From Bacteroidales bacterium (lineage in GTDB: Bacteria; Bacteroidota; Bacteroidia; Bacteroidales; PUMT01), in contig JAWODJ010000082.1 of the NCBI GenBank assembly GCA_046483315.1, positions 8,191-72,190 on the forward strand: a stretch of DNA of 64,000 nucleotides. Reading direction: 5' to 3'. The notes under the pieces were generated by a model, which was given only the letters and a program-made list of their open reading frames with translations, was not told the DNA's origin and ran no database searches. This document shows, piece after piece, positions 27,506 to 59,641 of this stretch. Each line of letters starts with the position of its first letter. The first letter of the stretch is position 1. The position numbers and the translations under genes are program-made.

Positions 27506-28168
27506 TCAGATATTTGGCTTTTTAAGACCAAGCAGAATCGGGAATGCCTTGTGTACATCCTTCTCTGCAAACACAAGACTTACTTCATTGGTTGTGGAGA
27601 TTATTTCACAAATATTGATACCTCCCCATGCCAGGTTTTTCAGAATGTAATAGTACACCCCCGAAATCTCGGTGTTATCTTCAGGAAGGCGTATGGTGAC
27701 GGATCCCAGCCCTGTTTTCCGCGAAAGCATTTTTTCCCTGACGAATATCCGGTCTATAATCTTATCCAGCGAGTTGCTGGCCACTATGGTTGTTTCATAA
27801 ACTCCCTGTGAAAATGTGCAGAAAACATTTTTTTCGCTGCCAATCTCATCTATCAGGTTTCGCTGGCAGGCGATGAGGGCAGGTGAATTCTCAAAACTAT
27901 GGTCGCTCAGATCGGAACGGACTATTATATCGCCCAGCTTGCTCATAAAAGTTTTTATTCCCTTGCTTATCTTGAAGTAGTAACCCGGTTCTCTCCTGTT
28001 GATTGCCATTATTATGGCTCCTTCCTGTACCGGTTTTTTCAGTGTTTTCTCAATATCCGGTTTTAACTTTCTGGCAAGTGAGGATACATTGACAATATTG
28101 TCGGTAATCGCTTCTTCAAGAAAGGGGGACTGCGATATCAGTCTTTCCACTGCTTGTGCAATAGTCAT
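27506..28168 (-). CDS. ACT-domain protein with a putative N-terminal DNA-binding region (no kinase domain)
   Basis: 220 aa; N-terminal IVNVSSLARKLKPDIE helix pattern; C-terminal ACT-like GVYYYILKNLAWGGINICEIISTTNEVSLV. Confidence 0.65.
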   Translation of the reverse strand: MTIAQAVERLISQSPFLEEAITDNIVNVSSLARKLKPDIEKTLKKPVQEGAIIMAINRREPGYYFKISKGIKTFMSKLGDIIVRSDLSDHSFENSPALIACQRNLIDEIGSEKNVFCTFSQGVYETTIVASNSLDKIIDRIFVREKMLSRKTGLGSVTIRLPEDNTEISGVYYYILKNLAWGGINICEIISTTNEVSLVFAEKDVHKAFPILLGLKKPNI

Positions 28169-28204: not shown

Positions 28205-28403
28205 TAAATATGTTGTAATTGTTTAGAAAATTATTCATTATTATCAGGAAGTGAGAAGTGAATTATTCTTTCGGCATCAACTTTTGAATTTCTCTGTTAT
28301 TTATTGTAACTTATAGATTTTATTATCCGTATAAAGCTCATATTGTATTAATTAGACACAATAATTGTTGATTTGGGCTGTTGTTCATATAAAATATGAA
28401 GCT

Positions 28404-29147
28404 ATGATACGACAACTATTTACACTCTTCATGTTTTTGATTATTCTGGCTTGTCAGTCTGTCGCCCAGGATTTCAGGATCACACCTCCGGAATTAAATT
28501 TTGACGGCAACCGGTTAAATATTGCCTATGATATTTTAAGTGACAATTCAGATGATCTGTTTTACGTATGGGTTGAGATAGAAAAACAAAACGGCGAAGC
28601 TGTCAGGGTAAAGACACCCGAAGGGGATGTGGGTGAGAAAATAAAACCCGGAAGGAACAAAAGGATTAGCTGGGTTCCCGAAACCGACATGGTTTTTCTC
28701 AATGAGGAGGTTTTTGTGGAGATTAAAGCAGAGAGATACCTGAAGTCTTTCAGCAAAGGTTCCCTCATGCTCAAGTCCGCGGTCCTGCCCGGCCTTGGCC
28801 AGAGCAGTGCAAGTGGTGGCAGGCCCTGGTGGCTTGCAGGAGTGGCAACATATGGAGCTTTGGCTGCCGGATTTATAACGTACCAGGGTCATCTGAGTAC
28901 TTATGATTTATATCTTTCTGAAGATGACCCTTTTAACAGAGTTGAGCTTTTTGACAAGGCACAAAGCCAGAGAGACATTGCCAATGTCCTTTTTATTTCA
29001 GGTGCGGCCGCCTGGGCTGCAAATATGATCTGGATGGTTGCAACACCGGACAGGTATCAGCCGCTCAGACATGCACCTTTTGCTGTTAATCCTTACTTGT
29101 CACCGTATTACGGAAATACAGGATTAATCGTAACAATAAAATTTTAA
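28404..29147 (+). CDS. Hypothetical exported protein with an Ig-like N-domain and a DUF5683-like C-terminal membrane region
   Basis: Signal peptide from MIRQLF (28404); KSAVLPGLGQ followed by hydrophobic helices; C-terminal GLIVTIKF. Confidence 0.6.
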   Translation: MIRQLFTLFMFLIILACQSVAQDFRITPPELNFDGNRLNIAYDILSDNSDDLFYVWVEIEKQNGEAVRVKTPEGDVGEKIKPGRNKRISWVPETDMVFLNEEVFVEIKAERYLKSFSKGSLMLKSAVLPGLGQSSASGGRPWWLAGVATYGALAAGFITYQGHLSTYDLYLSEDDPFNRVELFDKAQSQRDIANVLFISGAAAWAANMIWMVATPDRYQPLRHAPFAVNPYLSPYYGNTGLIVTIKF

Positions 29148-29158
29148 TCTTCAGAGCC

Positions 29159-30061
29159 ATGAGAAAGTTTATTTTTTTTGTGATTTTATACTCTGTTTCT
29201 GTAATGGCTGTTAATGCCCAGGTTGTAAGCAGTGAAAAAAGAGCGGTTCACATAAATAACAGGACATCAGAGGAGGCCAGGGAAGATCCCCTGCCGGAAG
29301 AGGCTGAGGGGGATATTGAACAATTATTGCCTGTGCCGGAGACACCGGCTGTTGAAGGTAAATATTATGCGCTCATATTCGGGATAAATGATTATGATGA
29401 CCCCCGTATAATGGATCTGGATAATCCGATCAGGGATGCGGATTTGTTCTATAAAACCATTACTTCCCGGTACACATTTGACAGGGAAAATGTTCGGTTT
29501 TTACGCAATGCCAGTATGGCTGAGATGGTTGAATCGCTTGATCATTTTGCCAGGGTTGTCACACCTGAAGATAATTTCATGGTGTTTTATGCAGGCCACG
29601 GTTTATGGAATCCCGATGCACAGATAGGTTTCTGGCTGCCTTCAGATGCCCAACAGAGCAGTACCCTTAACTGGTTCAGAAACAGTACCCTTCGCGATTA
29701 CCTGCGTGAGATAAAATCAAAACACACTCTTGTTATATCCGATGCCTGTTTTGCCGGTGCTATTTTTAAGACCCGCAGGGCCTTTGCAGATGCCTCGCTT
29801 GCCATAAACAGGTTATATGAGCTTCCGAGCCGGAAAGCCATGACAAGCGGCACACTTTCCGAGGTTCCCGATCAGAGTGCATTCATTAAGTATATGATTG
29901 ACAGGTTAGAGAACAATGATCAGAAATTCCTCTCTTCTGAACAGTTATTCAGCAGTTTCCGTATAGCCGTTATTAATAACAGTAAAGCTATTCCCCAGTA
30001 CGGTGAAATTCAGGATGTAGGCGATGAAGGGGGCGATTTCATCTTTATTCTCAGGGAATAG
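29159..30061 (+). CDS. Secreted caspase-family (peptidase C14) protease
   Basis: Signal peptide; YALIFGINDY, L.NP..DA, catalytic His in FYAGHG and Cys in SDACF. Confidence 0.88.
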   Translation: MRKFIFFVILYSVSVMAVNAQVVSSEKRAVHINNRTSEEAREDPLPEEAEGDIEQLLPVPETPAVEGKYYALIFGINDYDDPRIMDLDNPIRDADLFYKTITSRYTFDRENVRFLRNASMAEMVESLDHFARVVTPEDNFMVFYAGHGLWNPDAQIGFWLPSDAQQSSTLNWFRNSTLRDYLREIKSKHTLVISDACFAGAIFKTRRAFADASLAINRLYELPSRKAMTSGTLSEVPDQSAFIKYMIDRLENNDQKFLSSEQLFSSFRIAVINNSKAIPQYGEIQDVGDEGGDFIFILRE

Positions 30062-30103
30062 ATAAACAGTGAATCACAATTACTCCAAACACAAACTGAT
30101 CAG

Positions 30104-33100
30104 ATGAAAAATCCGGTATCCAGATCTCTGGAGGTCTTATTTCTTATCATTCTGGCTTTTGTATTAACTACTTGCGAAGAACTGGAAAGGGAGATGTTTG
30201 TTGTTACAGGCGAAGCCAACAATATTTCAACCATATCGGCAGATGTATCCGGCCAGGTCATTGATATGGGATCGGGAGCTACTCAGCACGGCCACTGTTA
30301 CGGTGAATCACCCAATGTAAAGGTTTCAGGACTTAAAACTTCATTGGGTATTCCTTCAGGCACCGGTGGTTTTACAAGCCAGCTTACCGGGTTGGATCAC
30401 GGCACACAATACTATGTAAAAGCTTACATGAGTAAAGGTGATATTACAGTTTATGGCAAGGAGATAAGCTTCACAACAGTCGCAGCCTCGGTTCCCACAG
30501 TTACAACTGCAGCAATAACCGGCACCACTGAAAGTACTGCCGCTGGTGGCGGCAATGTAACTGATGATGGGGGAACAGAAGTGACTGCCCGTGGTGTGGT
30601 TTGGAGCACTTCAGAGGATCCTGGACTTGAAGAGGACAGGCATGAGGGTTACACCGAAGATGGGGAAGGGGAAGGTGAGTTCACCAGCAACATCACCGGT
30701 CTTGATCCGTCAACAACCTACTATGTGAGGGCATATGCCACAAACAGTGTCGGCACAGCCTATGGAAGCCAGGTGAATTTTACCACAAGTGAGGGGCAGG
30801 TTGCGGGATTGCCAACCGTAATTACAAGTACGGCAACAGGAATTACACCGACATCTGCTATTGTTGGTGGAGAGGTAACTGACACCGGAGATTCAGATGT
30901 TACCGAAAGCGGTGTTTACTGGGGTGAATCAAATGATGTTGAGGAAAACGGTATTAAAAGAGCCATTGCAGATGGTCCGGGAACTTTTTCAACAACAATA
31001 TCAGGTCTTACTCCCGGAACAACATATTATTTTAAGGCGTATGCAATTAACGGTGAAGGTACGGCTTATGGTGATCTGGAAAGTATTGTAACCCCGACGG
31101 TTAATGACTATACTGTTTCAGGAGATGGTGTTGTTGATATTGACGGTAATGAATATGCCACGGTTATTATAGGGCAGCAGGAGTGGATGGCAGAAAACCT
31201 GCGTGTAACCAACTACGCTGATGGCAGTCCGGTAAGTACTGGCTTGAGTGGTACTGAATGGAACAATACAACAGAAGGAGCTTATGCAATTTATCCCTAT
31301 GGTGAAATAGATGGGCTTTATTCGACCGGGGAAGTGTTATCGGCATATGGTGCATTATATAACTGGTATGCCGTTGACGATCCAGGCAAACTTTGTCCTG
31401 CCGGATGGCGTGTACCAGCCGATGATGACTGGACTGAACTCACAGATTTTATAATTAACAATTATGCTGAAATAACTGGAGATAATGCAGGCAACTACCT
31501 GAAATCATGCCGCAGTGCCAATTCACCCCTTGGAGGTGATTGCGTAACTTCCGAACACCCGTTATGGCCATGGGATGATGAAACCACACAATATGGCACT
31601 GACAATTTTGGTTTTGCTGCCTATCCGGGAGGTTACCGCTCCACCGACGGAGGTTTTTATGATTTCGGCGGTTACGGTTTCTGGTGGAGCTCTTCGGAAT
31701 ATCAGACCTCCTATGCTACATCGAGGATAATGTATTTTGACAGGGGAGTGATTGGTGTTTCAAATGATGATAAGGAATACGGCTATTCGGTACGTTGTAT
31801 TAAGGATGATGCTGTTCAGGACGCATTGTCGACTCTAACTACTGCCGGAGTTACCGAAATCACCGCTACCACGGCCATTTCGGGCGGGAATATCACTTCT
31901 GACGGAGGGACGGCGATCACTGCCCGTGGTGTAGTCTGGGCAACAGATGAGAATCCCACCATGGAAACAAATATTGGTTCTACAGATGATGGCACAGGTA
32001 CCGGCACCTTCACCAGCGAGATCACTGGCCTTGTTCCAGGCACTCACTATTATGTCAGGGCTTATGCCACCAACAGCGTGGGAACCTCATATGGCGGGCA
32101 GGTTGAATTTACAACAGAGGCTGTCATTGCCTCCCTCACCACCGCCGAGATCACGAACATTACCTCCTCAACCGCCACGGCGGGAGGCGAGGTTACCGAT
32201 GATGGCGGTTCAGAAGTAACTGAAAGGGGCGTTGTATGGAGCATAACGGAGAACCCGACAACTGACCCGGCAGATCATGACGGCATGAAAGCCGCTAGCG
32301 AGGGAGGAACAGGGGTCTTTACTGTTGACCTCACAGGCCTCGATCCAGACACTCACTATTATGTCAGGGCTTATGCCACCAACAGCGTGGGAACCTCATA
32401 TGGCGGGCAGGTTGAATTTACAACAGAGGCTGTCATTGCCACGGTCACCACCGCCGAGATCACGAACATCACCTCCTCAACCGCCACGGCAGGAGGCGAG
32501 GTTACCGATGATGGCGGTTCAGAAGTAACCGAAAGGGGCGTTGTATGGAGCATGACGGAGAACCCGACAACTGACCCGGCAGATCATGACGGCATGATAG
32601 TCGCTAGCGAGGGAGGAACAGGGGTCTTTACTGTTGACCTCACAGGCCTTGTTCCAGGCACCCACTATTATGTCAGGGCTTATGCCACCAACAGTGAGGG
32701 AACCGCATATGGCGGGCAGGTTGAATTTACAACAGAGGCTGTCATTGCCACGGTCACCACCGCCGAGATCACGAACATCACCTCCTCAACCGCCACGGCA
32801 GGAGGCGAGGTTACCGATGATGGCGGTCCTGCAGTAACCGAAAGGGGCGTTGTATGGAGCATAACGGAGAACCCGACAACTGACCCGGCAGAGCATGATG
32901 GTATAGAAACCGATATCGAAGGTGGAATTGGTGTCTTTACTATTGACCTCACCGGCCTCGATCCAGACACTCACTATTATGTCAGGGCTTATGCCACCAA
33001 CAGCGTGGGAACCGCATATGGCGATCAGGTGGAGTTTTACACTCAGTTTGCTTGCGGTGATAATGTAACATTTACCTATCGGGGCGCAACAGTTACTTAT

Positions 33101-33676
33101 GGGACAGTTGAAAATACAGTAACAGGCAAGTGCTGGATGGACCGTAACCTGGGAGCTTCGAGAGTCGCCACATCATTCAATGACAGTGAGGCCTATGGTG
33201 ACCTGTTCCAGTGGGGCAGGCTGGATGACGGGCATCAGGACAGGACATCGGGCACAACATCTACCCGCAGCGATAGCAATACTCCGGGGCATGGGAATTT
33301 TATCTTAGCTCCGGACAGCCCTTATGACTGGCGCGATCCGCAGAATGATAACCTGTGGCAGGGAGACGGAGGAATCAATGATGTATGCCCTGCAGGATGG
33401 CGCTTACCAACCGAGAGCGAATTGAATGCCGAGCTTGCAAGCTGGGGCAGCAACAACAGCACCGGGGCCTTTGGTTCCCCACTTAAATTAGCTGTAGCGG
33501 GACGTCGCAGTGGCAGCAATGGTTCTTTCAACAATGTGGATTTCCAAGGCACTTGCTGGTCAAGTACCATAGATGGCATCGCCTCGCGATACCTGTATTT
33601 CGATAGCAGCGCTGCCAGCATGGACAGCAGCGGCCGTGCGAGCGGGCGCTCGATCCGTTGCCTTAAGGGTGATTGA
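30104..33676 (+). CDS. Large surface lipoprotein: Fn3-like repeats plus two FISUMP (Fib_succ_major)/CLec-like domains; candidate DGR target
   Basis: Lipobox LTTC followed by acidic EELERE; repeated GL.PGT.YYVRAYATN..GT.YG; DIDGNEYATVIIGQQEWMAENLR..GALYNW..LCPAGWRVP..SVRCIKD; C-terminal WMDRNLGA..YGDLFQWGR..CPAGWRLPT..SIRCLKGD. Confidence 0.9.
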   Translation: MKNPVSRSLEVLFLIILAFVLTTCEELEREMFVVTGEANNISTISADVSGQVIDMGSGATQHGHCYGESPNVKVSGLKTSLGIPSGTGGFTSQLTGLDHGTQYYVKAYMSKGDITVYGKEISFTTVAASVPTVTTAAITGTTESTAAGGGNVTDDGGTEVTARGVVWSTSEDPGLEEDRHEGYTEDGEGEGEFTSNITGLDPSTTYYVRAYATNSVGTAYGSQVNFTTSEGQVAGLPTVITSTATGITPTSAIVGGEVTDTGDSDVTESGVYWGESNDVEENGIKRAIADGPGTFSTTISGLTPGTTYYFKAYAINGEGTAYGDLESIVTPTVNDYTVSGDGVVDIDGNEYATVIIGQQEWMAENLRVTNYADGSPVSTGLSGTEWNNTTEGAYAIYPYGEIDGLYSTGEVLSAYGALYNWYAVDDPGKLCPAGWRVPADDDWTELTDFIINNYAEITGDNAGNYLKSCRSANSPLGGDCVTSEHPLWPWDDETTQYGTDNFGFAAYPGGYRSTDGGFYDFGGYGFWWSSSEYQTSYATSRIMYFDRGVIGVSNDDKEYGYSVRCIKDDAVQDALSTLTTAGVTEITATTAISGGNITSDGGTAITARGVVWATDENPTMETNIGSTDDGTGTGTFTSEITGLVPGTHYYVRAYATNSVGTSYGGQVEFTTEAVIASLTTAEITNITSSTATAGGEVTDDGGSEVTERGVVWSITENPTTDPADHDGMKAASEGGTGVFTVDLTGLDPDTHYYVRAYATNSVGTSYGGQVEFTTEAVIATVTTAEITNITSSTATAGGEVTDDGGSEVTERGVVWSMTENPTTDPADHDGMIVASEGGTGVFTVDLTGLVPGTHYYVRAYATNSEGTAYGGQVEFTTEAVIATVTTAEITNITSSTATAGGEVTDDGGPAVTERGVVWSITENPTTDPAEHDGIETDIEGGIGVFTIDLTGLDPDTHYYVRAYATNSVGTAYGDQVEFYTQFACGDNVTFTYRGATVTYGTVENTVTGKCWMDRNLGASRVATSFNDSEAYGDLFQWGRLDDGHQDRTSGTTSTRSDSNTPGHGNFILAPDSPYDWRDPQNDNLWQGDGGINDVCPAGWRLPTESELNAELASWGSNNSTGAFGSPLKLAVAGRRSGSNGSFNNVDFQGTCWSSTIDGIASRYLYFDSSAASMDSSGRASGRSIRCLKGD
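32027..33037 (+). repeat. Intragenic tandem repeat, 309-bp period (103 aa), about 3.3 near-identical copies
   Basis: cac(t/c)cactattatgtcagggcttatgccaccaacag recurs at 32041, 32350, 32659 and 32968. Confidence 0.95.
33503..33676 (+). other. Putative DGR variable region (VR)
   Basis: Last 57 sense codons of the CLec-like domain. By my manual count 44/57 end in C/T and 9/13 Ser codons are AGY, as expected for codons derived from AAY template codons; invariant scaffold WSST...RCLK. Confidence 0.6.
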
Positions 33677-33710
33677 CACTTTGATTAAGCCTGTGAAATA
33701 AGGAAAAGCC

Positions 33711-33725
33711 TTCCGCGAAGCGGGA
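33711..33725 (+). promoter_or_regulatory. DNA hairpin CCGC-GAA-GCGG downstream of the putative VR (candidate DGR target-recognition element)
   Basis: ttccgcgaagcggga begins 35 nt after the stop; contains the GCGAAGC mini-hairpin with a GAA triloop. Confidence 0.55.
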
Positions 33726-33742
33726 TCGGAAATTTTTTAAAA

Positions 33743-33844
33743 TTGACAATAAGGGAAAAAATAACACTGAGCAAACAGGAAGACCGTTTCACGCTTTACC
33801 GTGAGGGGATGTTTATTAAGTGCTATAATTCAGACTATTTTTAA
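33743..33844 (+). pseudogene. 33-codon relic resembling the N-terminus of a MutS-domain-I-like protein (DGR accessory type)
   Basis: Manual translation from TTG: (M)TIREKITLSKQEDRFTLYREGMFIKCYNSDYF*. LYREGMFIKCYNSD parallels the MutS-I pattern L(F/Y)xxGxFY..(F/Y)xxDA. Confidence 0.45.
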
Positions 33845-33889
33845 TTTTTCCCCGTTTTTTGTAAATTCGTTGTTAAGAAATAAGATATT

Positions 33890-34552
33890 ATGCCAGGAAA
33901 AAAGAATACAAGGGAAACCGGCAAGTTGGAGGAACCATTGTCGGCTTATGGCGATGGGCCTTTGACCTTTGAGAAGGTTTGGCTGATGTTTCAGGAAACT
34001 GATAAACAGTTTAAGGAAACCGACCGGCAGATCAAGGAGACCGACAGGACGTTGTCCGAGAAGTTTAGGGAGACCGATAAGGCTTTATCTGAGAGGTTCA
34101 GGGAAACCGACAAAAAGATCAAGGATCTGTCTGATCTGTTCAATAGCCAGTGGGGCAGGCTGGTGGAATCTCTTGTTGAAGGAGCTGTGATAAGGATCTT
34201 CAGGGAAGCGGGAATCGAAGTTTATTATACTAGCGAGAGGGTAAAGGGCAATGCCGGCAGGGAAAATTTTGAATTTGACATTGTGGCAAATAATGCCAAA
34301 GACCTGGTGGTAATAGAGGTAAAGACCACCCTGCGGCCGGCAGACGTAAAGACATTTCTTGCAAAACTGAAAAAGATAAAAACCTGGATCCCGGCTTACA
34401 GGGATCGCCATATCCGTGGCAGCGTGGCTTTCCTGACAGCGCAAGCTGGTTCTGAAATACAGGCGCAGAGTGCCGGGTTATACACGATAAAGGCCACGGG
34501 CGACAGCGCTTACCTTCTGAACCCTCCCGGTTTTGAGCCGCGGATTTTCTGA
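33890..34552 (+). CDS. Coiled-coil repeat protein with a C-terminal PD-(D/E)XK nuclease-like domain (DUF3782-like)
   Basis: Five ETD(K/R) repeats, WGRLVE, EFDIVA..VVIEVK. Confidence 0.75.
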   Translation: MPGKKNTRETGKLEEPLSAYGDGPLTFEKVWLMFQETDKQFKETDRQIKETDRTLSEKFRETDKALSERFRETDKKIKDLSDLFNSQWGRLVESLVEGAVIRIFREAGIEVYYTSERVKGNAGRENFEFDIVANNAKDLVVIEVKTTLRPADVKTFLAKLKKIKTWIPAYRDRHIRGSVAFLTAQAGSEIQAQSAGLYTIKATGDSAYLLNPPGFEPRIF

Positions 34553-57456: not shown

Positions 57457-58431
57457 ATGAAGAAGCTATTATTAATAATTACTTTATTTACAGTTGCTCT
57501 ATTTGCCGGAAAGGCACAACAGCTGCCGCTCTATTCGCAGTATATGATGAACAGTTTTTTGCTCAATCCTGCAGTTGCCGGGAATGACGGACTTACATCA
57601 TTTAATTTAACGGCAAGGGAGCAATGGCTGGGTTTTGAGAATGCTCCGAGAACAGTCGCAATTAGCGGGCAATCCAGGTTGCTGAGAAACAGTCCTATAT
57701 CCCGCGGGCGTTCGGTCAGAAGACGTCCTACTGCAATGAGCCGGAGTGGTAATGTTGGGGTAGGCGGGTACATCTTTAACGACAGAAACGGGATTATTGA
57801 CCGTACGGGGCTGCAGGGAACCTACTCTTATCATATATGGATGGATCAGAACCAGCTTTCGTTCGGGATATCACTTACAGCGTTCCAGCTTAAGCTTGAT
57901 GACAGAAATATGCTTTTGAATAATAATGATGATCCGCTGCTGAATTCCAGCCGGAAAGCTCTTTTTGTGCCGGATGTTAACCTTGGTATATATTTCAGTA
58001 ACCCCAATTATTATGCAGGATTCTCAACCGCACAACTTTTGCAGTCTGCCCTGAAATTCGGAAATGATGGTTACAAAGATTTTAAGATGCTCCGTCATTA
58101 TTATCTGATGGGAGGTTACGGCTTTTTCCTTGACAATGGTGTTACAATTGAACCTTCAGTATTATTACAGGCCACATTTGAAAGCAGGGTGCAGGTAGAT
58201 ATCAATACCCGTGTATATTACAGGGATGATTACTGGGGTGGTATTTCTTACCGTACTTCCGGAGCACTGATTATGATGGGAGGGGTCAAGGTTGACAGGT
58301 TCTATTTCGGATACGCTTTTGATTATTCATTGAGCAGTATACGTAAACACAGTTTTGGCTCGCATGAATTTATGGCAAGTATCAAATTCGGGGATACGGC
58401 AAGGCGCTACCGCTGGCTCAACAGGTATTAA
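57457..58431 (+). CDS. PorP/SprF-family T9SS outer-membrane protein (copy 1)
   Basis: QQLPLYSQYMMN..LNPAVAG, REQWLG, GYAFDY, GSHEF. Start moved to MKKLL (57457). Confidence 0.92.
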   Translation: MKKLLLIITLFTVALFAGKAQQLPLYSQYMMNSFLLNPAVAGNDGLTSFNLTAREQWLGFENAPRTVAISGQSRLLRNSPISRGRSVRRRPTAMSRSGNVGVGGYIFNDRNGIIDRTGLQGTYSYHIWMDQNQLSFGISLTAFQLKLDDRNMLLNNNDDPLLNSSRKALFVPDVNLGIYFSNPNYYAGFSTAQLLQSALKFGNDGYKDFKMLRHYYLMGGYGFFLDNGVTIEPSVLLQATFESRVQVDINTRVYYRDDYWGGISYRTSGALIMMGGVKVDRFYFGYAFDYSLSSIRKHSFGSHEFMASIKFGDTARRYRWLNRY

Positions 58432-58669: not shown

Positions 58670-59641
58670 ATGGCAAGGGTAGGTATAATTGCATTTTTGT
58701 TTTTGTTGACTCTCAATTCAGAGGCTCAGCAAATGCCCATGTACAGCCAGTATATGATGAACCGCTTTTTGCTGAATCCCGCCGTTGCCGGTTATGACGG
58801 ATTGACAACATTGAATTTTACTGCACGCGAACAATGGTTGGGATTGCCTTACTCTCCAAGAACCGTGGCATTAAGTGCCGACGCCAGAATGATAAAAGCG
58901 CCTCCTGCCAGGCCCGGCCTTCCTGACAAAAGGAGTATAATGAATCTTTTTCGCAGTGGCAATGTGGGTCTGGGTGCGTATATTTATAATGACAGAAGTG
59001 GATTGATTGACCGCACCGGGTTACAGGTAAGTTATGCTTATCATATCTGGATGCAGGAACACCAGTTGTCATTCGGTGTTTCCCTGACCGGTTTTCAGAT
59101 GAAGCTGGATCAGCGAAGAATTGAACTCGAAGAAGATTATGATCCGCTGATGGGACTATACAGCAAGGCTTTATATGTACCCGATGTAAACTCAGGAATT
59201 CATCTTTGGGGACCGTCATATTACGTTGGCATCTCATCCACACAAATGTTACAATCGGTTTTGAAGTTCGGACATGACGGTCTTCAGGATTTCAGGATGG
59301 AACGGGTTTTTTATCTTATGGGTGGGTATTCTTTTGAACTTGAAAACGGTGTTACCGTAGAGCCTGTTATGCTCGCGCAGACAAGTCTGGGATCTTCTTT
59401 CCGGTTTGACATCGGGTCCAAGTTCTATTACGGGGACCAGTACTGGGGTGGTCTGTCATACCGCTCTGTCGGGGCTGTGGTTTTTATGTTAGGATTCAGG
59501 TTCGAGAGGTTCCATTTTGGTTATGCCTATGATTATTCGCTGAACAGTATGAGCCACCAGAACTTCGGTTCACACGAGCTTATGATAAATCTTCGTTTCG
59601 GAGACACCCAGAGACGGTACCGCTGGCTGGAGCGCTATTGA
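58670..59641 (+). CDS. PorP/SprF-family T9SS outer-membrane protein (copy 2)
   Basis: QQMPMYSQYMMN..LNPAVAG, REQWLG, GYAYDY, GSHEL. Start moved to MARVG (58670). Confidence 0.92.
   Translation: MARVGIIAFLFLLTLNSEAQQMPMYSQYMMNRFLLNPAVAGYDGLTTLNFTAREQWLGLPYSPRTVALSADARMIKAPPARPGLPDKRSIMNLFRSGNVGLGAYIYNDRSGLIDRTGLQVSYAYHIWMQEHQLSFGVSLTGFQMKLDQRRIELEEDYDPLMGLYSKALYVPDVNSGIHLWGPSYYVGISSTQMLQSVLKFGHDGLQDFRMERVFYLMGGYSFELENGVTVEPVMLAQTSLGSSFRFDIGSKFYYGDQYWGGLSYRSVGAVVFMLGFRFERFHFGYAYDYSLNSMSHQNFGSHELMINLRFGDTQRRYRWLERY

Follow-up and report, generated by a model that had tools for sequence, protein, structure and literature searches.

Caspase homologues are numerous in bacteria and, to our knowledge, almost none of them has a known partner or substrate, the exported ones being the least understood. 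In the formation of type V pili in Bacteroidota, the pilins are cleaved by an Arg-specific clan-CD protease, after which strand exchange takes place, and other cut-and-join precedents in clan CD are the PorU sortase, legumain and the GPI8 transamidases. The variable proteins of diversity-generating retroelements (DGRs) reportedly adopt the fold of a C-type lectin (CLec), as Wu et al. are said to have described in 2018. In the part of the source drawn on here, fusions of metacaspases or orthocaspases with FGE-sulfatase domains were noted in 2012 without explanation, in 33 sequences (Asplund-Samuelsson et al, 2012, PMC3501461). Intracellular FGS-lectin/NTPase/caspase systems, often with a DGR, were later proposed as immunity modules, as far as the excerpted text of that study goes (Kaur, Iyer, Burroughs & Aravind, 2021, PMC8195603). 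Here, we analysed a stretch of 64,000 nucleotides (hereafter, the window) from a Bacteroidales bacterium, positions 8191-72190 of contig C6 in a genome of 3.59 Mb, 129 contigs and an estimated completeness of 98.1%, with respect to three tightly spaced same-strand genes, g1, g2 and g3, that are separated by gaps of 11 and 42 nt (Table 1).

A first-pass annotation of the letters had read these genes as a membrane protein, an exported caspase and a hypervariable surface receptor of the DGR type, joined in one operon. Our analysis indicates that the three genes are a conserved envelope cassette and not a DGR target. That a membrane protein, an exported caspase and a stalked CLec-type lipoprotein form one unit is borne out by synteny in nine of nine orthologous loci, by the linkage of the N-terminal domain of g1 (ND) to C14 caspase genes across the order and by a docking model.

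g1, g2 and an Fn3-stalk lipoprotein gene travel together in diverged Bacteroidales genomes

Orthologous loci were collected by a scan of one genome per species, which yielded nine loci in metagenome-assembled genomes titled Bacteroidales or (uncultured) Rikenellaceae. In all nine loci with g1 orthologues, the order g1, g2, Fn3-stalk gene was kept on one strand, with g2 lying immediately downstream of g1 and the gaps amounting to tens of nucleotides, at identities of 45-56% for g1 and 56-66% for g2. The genes that flank the triad in the window (metH, a 220-aa gene, the downstream gene g4, a flavin reductase gene and a GH3 gene) had no match in the nine loci. Synteny elsewhere had been named by the first-pass annotation as the point on which its proposal could fail, and the triad was syntenic in every orthologous locus. 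Thus, g1, g2 and the Fn3-stalk lipoprotein travel together in diverged Bacteroidales genomes.

The third gene differed among these loci in the head domain carried on its stalk. The head was of the FISUMP type in L125, L127, L128, L130 and L131, of the Lcl_C type in L126, SusD-like in L129 and a PPC domain in L133, and the third gene of L132 was a 223-aa stub without a head. A search with g2 in 15 genomes of the same genus found no close orthologue of the cassette, and its distribution is therefore patchy. As for the surroundings of the orthologous triads, an FHA-trypsin gene was present directly upstream in L126, and a gene for an nSTAND3 NTPase and a RadC-like gene were present ~3-5 kb downstream in L129.

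The ND domain, its caspase partners and the predicted docking

The ND was found through several upstream neighbours of g2-related caspases that have in common with g1 an N-terminal domain of ~95 aa (blastp E of 1e-4 to 1e-5). None of the seven seed domains had a significant Pfam match, and a scan of 14 small ND homologues assigned no family to 12 of them, Kre9_KNH to one and an ND-FGE-sulfatase fusion (P0129) to the other. When 1.84 billion representative sequences were searched with an ND profile, 4294 proteins passed a threshold of E≤1e-3, and 1268 passed E≤1e-10; most are 250-300 aa long with the ND at residues 20-111. A terminal Phe, preceded by a C-terminal part that is Gly-rich and barrel-like, is present in 82 of 106 ND homologues with 200-400 aa. 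The structure listing of the ESM Atlas, a lead that comes without statistics, placed ND-like N-terminal domains in clusters with DUF5683, Peptidase_C14 plus Glucodextran_B, Kre9_KNH, FGE-sulfatase, Fib_succ_major and Lcl_C. We also observed giant proteins (P0001-P0016; 1440-5686 aa) that contain 5 to 29 tandem ND-like modules; the fold is therefore also used as a general-purpose repeat in proteins unrelated to the caspase setting.

In the genome of the window, only two open reading frames (ORFs) were matched by the ND profile at E<1e-10, g1 and C81:3166-3921, and both adjoin a C14 gene. The second locus (L063, C81:3166-5843) encodes a 251-aa ND protein built like g1, with a signal peptide, the ND, two hydrophobic helices and a C-terminal Phe, and, divergent to it, a 594-aa exported caspase with N-terminal WG-type repeats. 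The genome thus has two ND-caspase pairs, and a third, unpaired exported caspase was observed at C59:5690-6472. Among 251 sampled genomes of the order, the ND was present in 62. For the linkage analysis, the best ND hit of each of these genomes and the window, that is, 63 loci, were examined within ±7 kb by local profiles for the ND, the C14 domain and FISUMP. As a result, a caspase was found in 46 of the 63 loci, or in 41 of 58 when the five loci that had supplied ND seeds were left out. The two were fused in one reading frame in 9 loci, on the same strand with an ORF gap of ≤200 nt in 30, further apart on the same strand in 5 and on opposite strands in 2. Of the 17 loci lacking a caspase, 12 are no more than 2.3 kb from the end of their contig. 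C14 genes are scarce within a genome and occur in at least 105 of the 251 genomes, and a random 14-kb stretch would be expected to hold one in ~1% of cases, a figure that is an estimate and not a computed control. A count of ND and C14 co-occurrence at the genome level was dropped; the family search on which it relied missed known caspases, including that of the window itself. The most frequent neighbour family in the order sample was that of g3-like Fn3-stalk genes (15 of 45 loci with ND and caspase), followed by a family with a DUF4384 match (10 loci), and fusions of the ND with FISUMP were found in five loci, of which three adjoin a caspase. Taken together, these results show that the ND is a widespread, unannotated domain whose genes adjoin or are fused with those of exported C14 caspases.

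The docking of the two proteins was modelled in a single complex prediction with mature g2 (residues 21-300) and the ND (22-118). The interface score ipSAE was 0.66 (0.66, 0.64 and 0.71 in the individual runs), compared with 0.01 for the best control, and the runs had at least 57% of contacts in common, with a predicted local distance difference test (pLDDT) score of the partner of at least 81. The confident interface residues of g2 were 21-35 and 37 exclusively, and those of the ND were 24-33, 35-36, 38, 42, 60, 92-93 and 97-111. The model predicts that the g2 peptide joins the ND as an additional beta-strand, lying between its first strand and its last. Complex modelling among the triad proteins had been suggested by the first-pass annotation, and for the g1-g2 pair the predicted docking supports its coupling of the two. 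The N-terminal peptide of g2 is conserved in 10 triad orthologues. In the ND-fused caspases, the ND follows directly after the signal peptide, and separate caspases beside an ND gene have an N-terminal peptide in that place.

The signal peptide of g2 ends between A and Q, and its catalytic domain matched Peptidase_C14 (PF00656) with E = 3.2e-16 and 60.2 bits (cut-off, 21.4). All 13 aligned relatives keep the dyad of His147 (in FYAGHG) and Cys197 (in DACF), in agreement with the earlier description of g2 as a signal-peptide caspase with an intact dyad. A search of the Protein Data Bank with the g2 sequence alone returned nothing significant, and a g2 profile found metacaspases as the nearest solved structures (Yca1, 4f6o; E = 3.5e-9). 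An Asp two residues before the catalytic Cys, as in the metacaspase-like D-A-C motif, suggests Arg/Lys specificity. We infer from the invariant dyad that g2 is catalytically active, and, being metacaspase-like, it would probably cut after Arg or Lys. Relatives of g2 were matched at 1e-10 in 20 of 61 related genomes; in 12 of the 14 best loci, the caspase carries an extra Glucodextran_B-like Ig domain, which g2 does not have. In three loci of related caspases (L050, L057 and L058), we observed a gene for a large surface protein with a Por_Secre_tail domain, sorted by the type IX secretion system, followed by one for an OMP_b-brl_2-type protein and then the caspase.

The signal peptide of g1 was read as cleaved between VA and Q. 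The ORF list offers an alternative start for g1, TTG at 28365; the ATG at 28404 is supported because the orthologues begin at that Met. When g1 was modelled from its single sequence, the pLDDT was 40 and the model was unusable; an AlphaFold2 model based on a 22-row alignment, used instead, had a mean pLDDT of 81 and consists of a seven-strand sandwich (aa 24-114), two short helices, a long helical hairpin and C-terminal strands of low confidence. Each helix of the hairpin has a hydrophobic stretch of ~20 residues, the outer halves are hydrophobic, and the pLDDT of this block is 88-96. The C-terminal Phe (F247) is invariant in 22 of 22 aligned sequences. No Pfam family matched g1 at E≤0.01. The earlier label of a DUF5683-like membrane protein holds in part: g1 is below the threshold of DUF5683 (PF18935; E = 0.012, 16 bits, cut-off 26.7), and 10 of 19 g1 orthologues (43-57% identity) have a precomputed PF18935 match. 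Fold searches with the g1 model returned only generic Ig/Fn3 and helical-hairpin matches, and its nearest structures in the ESM Atlas were DUF5683 clusters. In the part of the source drawn on here, a DUF5683 protein is listed in the outer-membrane vesicles of P. gingivalis with the localisation "unknown" (PMC13744359).

The third protein, g3, has the lipobox LTTC with Cys24, read directly in the sequence, followed by about eight Fn3-like modules, of which the first is distinctive and three are the 309-nt tandem repeats. FISUMP domain 1 matched PF09603 with E = 6.7e-42 and 144.3 bits (cut-off, 33.9) and TIGR02145 with 130.6 bits (cut-off, 41.65). The C-terminal domain had a Pfam match to Lcl_C (0.0023) and a partial one to Fib_succ_major, and a local FISUMP profile matched g3 twice (8e-45 and 5e-21); a PDB sequence search with this domain returned nothing significant. 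The description of g3 as a long-stalk lipoprotein with a CLec-like C-terminus thus stood. The (S/T)C lipobox is conserved in 11 of 13 third-gene products of triad loci, the first domain, which carries a QHGHCY motif, is common to 9 of 13, and a basic residue is kept a few positions past the lipidated Cys (CKKLEK in relatives, CEELER in g3). The 309-nt repeats are where a change in repeat number is likely. We also observed joints in metagenome contigs that skip parts of g3; their sides are short, they may stem from repeats or other organisms, and they were not used. Elsewhere in the genome, C127:2879-4333 (minus strand) encodes a 484-aa lipoprotein whose first domain is of the g3 type, scoring 166 bits compared with 176 for g3 and at most 62 for generic Fn3 repeats, and this lipoprotein may be a client that the cassette serves from a distance.

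Proposed mechanism and competing explanations

The reading that we prefer, at a probability of about 0.45, is that g1 tethers g2 at the membrane and that g2 acts on the co-encoded lipoprotein g3. After export, the first ~15 residues of mature g2 would add a strand to the ND, and g2 would thereby be tethered through a ~30-residue acidic linker to the membrane hairpin of g1. The most likely client of g2 would be g3, which may be matured or released from its lipid anchor; g3 is a candidate client because gene order, the first domain and the basic residue after the lipidated Cys are conserved. The lectin-like heads of g3, which are swapped as entire domains from one lineage to another, would give binding specificity. 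Among relatives, the ND may link caspases of this kind to anchors that resemble outer-membrane barrels or, directly, to domains with a lectin fold. We rank tethered maturation or release first, an envelope sensor-effector second and an assembly like that of type V pili third.

Several points weigh against this reading. The docking of g2 on the ND is a matter of model confidence, not a measurement, and the calibration of the ipSAE mark, which was reached by 58 of 80 solved complexes and by 2 of 110 mismatched pairs, holds only roughly because the complex job used alignments of our own. In favour of the docking, a peptide profile built from one half of 31 sequences told the remaining half apart from 156 control N-termini of exported proteins with a mean area under the curve of 0.92 over ten splits, a value inflated by sequence relatedness; against it, a profile from the 10 close orthologues recognised none of 34 distant caspases at ≥5 bits, compared with 1 of 352 controls. 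The N-terminus of g3 was considered as a mimic of the docking peptide and was rejected, its profile score not being above background. With respect to the linkage, five ND loci with full flanks have no caspase, and the ND seed came from caspase-adjacent genes, so that taking the best hit in each genome may bias the sample towards a subfamily linked to caspases; the giant tandem-ND proteins have no known caspase link. As for g1, the loop of its hairpin is acidic, contrary to the positive-inside rule for an inner-membrane hairpin, and its invariant Phe at the C-terminus looks like a signal for the outer membrane, although the modelled structure is helical. The putative role of g3 as the protease client is suggested by gene order alone. 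Only 15 of the 45 loci with ND and caspase hold a g3-like gene, and the protease must therefore have other clients or none of this kind; the C127 paralogue of g3 lies away from any ND or caspase gene. As a hint of expression, metatranscriptome libraries from two salt-lake studies contain contigs 100% identical to parts of g1, g2, g3 and g4, one of which bridges the g1/g2 junction (29038-29277), and such contigs prove neither transcription nor a single transcript; the deepest coverage of the region in these RNA libraries was that of g4 (42.7 in X18).

Among the alternatives, the one that survives best, though we consider it unlikely, is an envelope sensor-effector, in which the heads of g3 would sense a glycan, a phage or a predator and would switch on the docked caspase for signalling or self-sacrifice cleavage. 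Outside the cytoplasm, such an arrangement would match the intracellular conflict systems that combine lectin folds with caspases. A sensor of this kind would fit the recurrence of the caspase/lectin-fold pairing as ND-FISUMP, ND-FGE-sulfatase and ND-Lcl_C, the 33 metacaspase-FGE-sulfatase fusion sequences counted in the available part of PMC3501461 and the proposal, in the excerpted text of PMC8195603, that FGS-lectin sensors and caspase effectors form immunity systems. The swaps of heads between lineages, as a diversifying pressure would predict, the patchy distribution of the cassette and the nSTAND3, RadC and FHA-trypsin genes near the triad in two of the nine loci point the same way. Against it stands the composition of the cassette, which has no NTPase, regulator or obvious output domain; profile scans of g1-g4 and the flanking genes found no STAND or other NTPase and no EAD or Death-like adaptor domain. 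The defence-oriented collections gave little more: PADLOC returned a generic "caspase" match for g2 and none for g1 or g3, and g2 scored 75.9 bits for NCBIfam NF047832 (caspase, EACC1-associated type), below the cut-off of 140. Furthermore, all parts are exported, unlike those of the described systems, and a Pfam scan of the window found no phage or defence-island context.

Less probable still is the absence of any functional coupling to g3, in which g1 and g2 would be a two-gene module and the lipoprotein a frequent neighbour, for example through a shared envelope-stress promoter or through hitch-hiking. It is favoured by the limited share of ND-caspase loci with a g3-like gene, by the solitary C127 paralogue and by the variation of the heads, which may even be missing, as in the stub of L132. 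It is opposed by the constancy of gene order in nine of nine loci at 45-56% identity of g1, with small gaps and unrelated flanks, and by the specific conservation of the first domain of the third gene in triad loci.

We hold in lower regard a protease-driven surface assembly, in which g2, acting like other exported clan-CD enzymes that cut and re-join, would remove the lipidated N-terminus of g3. An Ig-like groove such as that of the ND would then take up the new end, or another strand, and a stalked lectin fibre would be built or anchored, by analogy with type V pili. The lipoprotein nature of g3, with its basic residue past the lipid-bearing Cys and its conserved first domain, would suit such a route, as would the ND, which is predicted to accept a foreign edge beta-strand, and g1, which ends in a conserved strand with the invariant Phe. 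This is countered by the N-terminus of g3, which has no match to the docking-peptide profile, by the modelled ND, which is a complete seven-strand sandwich and not a grooved pilin fold, and by the fold searches with the g1 model, which returned no pilin match, although one could be missed.

The remaining alternative concerns the label under which g3 was first described, a receptor whose C-terminal domain bears DGR-type variable repeat (VR) signatures. A DGR would comprise a reverse transcriptase (RT), a template repeat (TR) with adenine mismatches to the VR and, usually, an accessory gene. No RVT_1 (PF00078) match was found in the genome of the window (98.1% complete, 129 contigs), three control genomes being positive, and RVT_1 was present in one of five other triad genomes, on another contig. 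No template repeat was found in the window: both the region and the window as a whole, when searched for repeats, yielded the stalk repeats only. In the genome, the last 301 nt of g3 had no TR partner, the only matches being two coding paralogues of 68 and 72% identity, and the mismatches to them involve all four bases, with A accounting for 20 of 69 and 10 of 48. The stretch, or a closely related strain, is present in DNA runs from sediment. One of these runs contains a 5.4-kb contig from a related strain that shows 62 differences across 28300-30291, and the substitution spectrum of the same run, with 27 of 106 changes from A, has no adenine bias; another run matches 33230-33536 with zero differences. 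In the spacer 33677-33889, where an accessory-gene relic had been suspected, no frame exceeds 64 aa, and the two longest have no Pfam match, although a badly decayed relic could escape; no accessory (Avd-type) gene was thus found there. The hairpin after g3 was considered as a DGR element and was rejected, its stability being no better than that of shuffled sequences.

Both FISUMP domains of g3 end alike. Because an RT, a TR, A-biased variation and an accessory gene were not found, the "VR signatures" are a family trait, namely the ordinary conserved C-terminus of the FISUMP family. The C-terminal CLec-fold domain of g3 (FISUMP/Lcl_C type) does have this trait of DGR targets, yet, being common to the family, it is no sign of diversification. 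The variation seen is the swapping of whole head domains and a change in repeat number, not mutagenic retrohoming. We therefore rejected g3 as a DGR target: the genome of the window has no RT, neither window nor genome has a TR, there is no A bias and there is no accessory gene, and the claim of hypervariability did not survive the absence of RT and TR, mismatches on all bases and the lack of RVT_1 in four of the five other triad genomes. That a DGR diversifies the C-terminal domain, or recently did, and so yields a hypervariable receptor to which the caspase is coupled, is highly improbable, in spite of FISUMP, Lcl_C and FGE-sulfatase being known DGR target folds (in the excerpted part of PMC8195603) and of orthocaspase domains in cyanobacterial DGR variable proteins (in that of PMC7517822), given the lack of RVT_1 in a 98.1% complete genome, in which an unassembled RT is possible, the missing TR and the paralogue mismatches that are not A-specific, the sediment-strain changes and the single RVT_1-positive triad genome, and the spacer without an Avd-like match. 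FISUMP-type C-termini resemble DGR targets even where no DGR is present, which should be borne in mind in annotation. In sum, the first-pass annotation was confirmed in part as an observation and supported in part as an interpretation: the three-gene linkage is conserved, and the DGR label was not upheld.

Boundaries of the cassette and relation to known systems

The triad is bounded at its 5' side by the divergent 220-aa gene (27506-28168, minus strand) and at its 3' side by a small hairpin. The 220-aa gene was considered as a member of the cassette and was rejected, not being conserved with the triad. In three orthologous loci (L125, L130 and L131), a gene for an exported protein of ~270 aa with no Pfam family lies divergent upstream of g1; it is absent from the window. 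As it is present in only three of the nine triad loci, it was likewise rejected as a member. The hairpin noted earlier after g3 is present with a T-run and is terminator-like; its region folds no better than shuffles (z = 0.21, not exceptional), and a terminator scan of the region found 8 sites compared with 8.2 expected. The hairpin is probably a small terminator that marks the 3' end of the unit. The Bacteroidetes -7 promoter motif TAnnTTTG was not found in the four spacers.

The nuclease-like gene downstream, g4, is separated from g3 by a spacer of 213 nt (33677-33889). The earlier reading of this gene as PD-(D/E)XK nuclease-like stood as far as it goes, with weak matches of this type to Hjc, NOV_C and YraN in a profile search (E ~0.005), and its place in the unit did not, with 0 of 9 orthologous loci holding it. 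In a comparison with PADLOC models, g4 matched Csx1/CARF_PDDEXK at 1e-6 in the nuclease part of the models only, and it has no CARF domain. Its N-terminus has coiled-coil repeats of the ETD(K/R) type, and direct repeats of 21-33 nt are present at 33988-34125. No homologue of g4 was found in the nine orthologous triad loci, and, being absent from all of them, g4 is not a member and lies outside the cassette. A Pfam scan identified the other neighbours in the window as housekeeping genes (metH, flavin reductase, GH3 and a DEAD-box helicase). Further along the window, a 154-nt direct repeat with 73% identity was observed at 57512-57665 and 58722-58875, with a spacing of 1210 nt.

Table 1. Positions in the window of the three cassette genes, their domains and the adjoining downstream features
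Feature	Position	Strand	Description
g1	28404-29147	+	247 aa; signal peptide, ND, helical hairpin, C-terminal tail with invariant Phe
ND	28470-28748	+	beta-sandwich of g1, aa about 23-115; predicted caspase docking site
DUF5683-like helical hairpin	28830-29042	+	helices aa 143-172 and 176-213 of g1; membrane anchor
g2	29159-30061	+	300-aa exported C14 (metacaspase-like) cysteine protease
g2 N-terminal peptide	29219-29269	+	aa 21-37 of mature g2, QVVSS.K..V.INN type; predicted docking strand
g2 catalytic C14 domain	29357-30058	+	aa 67-300
g3	30104-33676	+	1190-aa lipoprotein; lipobox Cys24, Fn3-like repeats, two FISUMP-type heads
FISUMP domain 1	31163-31804	+	aa 354-567 of g3; PF09603, TIGR02145
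Tandem repeats	31996-32913	+	three of 309 nt, 89-92% identical; Fn3-like stalk modules
C-terminal divergent FISUMP/Lcl_C-like domain	33071-33673	+	putative VR region of the first-pass annotation
Hairpin and T-run	33709-33740 (hairpin 33709-33729)	+	terminator-like, after the g3 stop
g4	33890-34552	+	coiled-coil and PD-(D/E)XK nuclease-like protein; neighbour only

Handles for testing that come out of this analysis are a predicted docking pair, in which a peptide of 17 residues is matched with a domain of 95, a candidate client whose first domain is conserved, and an ND family of more than 1,000 sequence clusters without Pfam annotation. It also ties the association of caspases with lectin folds, noted long ago without explanation, to a physical adaptor outside the cytoplasm. 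A broader and more doubtful proposal is that the ND may be a docking domain not described before, which captures the N-terminal strand of exported metacaspases and so recruits them to interchangeable anchors or lectin folds, and that, with stalked lectin lipoproteins, it may form an extracytoplasmic "lectin-guided caspase" system. Its partners, if this tentative view is right, would be helical membrane anchors, outer-membrane-barrel-like anchors, FISUMP, Lcl_C and FGE-sulfatase. Such a system, if real, would be an envelope-level counterpart of intracellular lectin/caspase immunity or a line of surface assembly driven by the protease. It would occur widely in Bacteroidota and also in other phyla, and, if binding by the lectin heads controls the protease, it would be a new Gram-negative coupling of surface recognition to proteolysis. 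A search of the open full-text literature for FISUMP, DUF5683 and caspases in Bacteroidetes, subscription journals and supplements lying outside its scope, did not find this arrangement described.

When the cassette is compared with what is known, g1 is like the DUF5683 (PF18935) proteins in its helical hairpin with a PGLGQ motif, although it is itself below the cut-off of the family. The resemblance to type V pilus assembly lies in a lipoprotein precursor, an exported clan-CD protease that probably prefers Arg/Lys and an Ig-like domain that, by prediction, accepts a strand from another protein; the cassette differs in that no pilin fold was found and in that the predicted docking strand is the N-terminus of the protease itself. 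Like the variable proteins of DGRs, g3 is a putative surface protein that ends in a CLec-type domain of the FISUMP/Lcl_C class, whereas the cassette has no RT, TR/VR pair, A-specific mismatches or accessory gene. With the systems of Kaur et al, as the excerpted text of PMC8195603 presents them, it has in common a variable lectin fold together with a caspase and architectures that diversify between close relatives. Unlike in those systems, the proteins of the triad all have export signals, are split over three genes and are diversified by the swapping of domains and repeats, and the cassette has no STAND or other NTPase, adaptor domain, RT or Avd. The metacaspase-FGE-sulfatase fusions, as described in the available part of PMC3501461, likewise combine a His/Cys C14 protease with a lectin-fold domain, many of them with an N-terminal signal or transmembrane segment. 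In contrast to those fusions, the lectin folds of the cassette sit on a stalked lipoprotein of their own and those of relatives on small ND-lectin proteins, and a non-covalent link to the protease, by way of the ND as a dedicated docking domain and a membrane anchor, is predicted.

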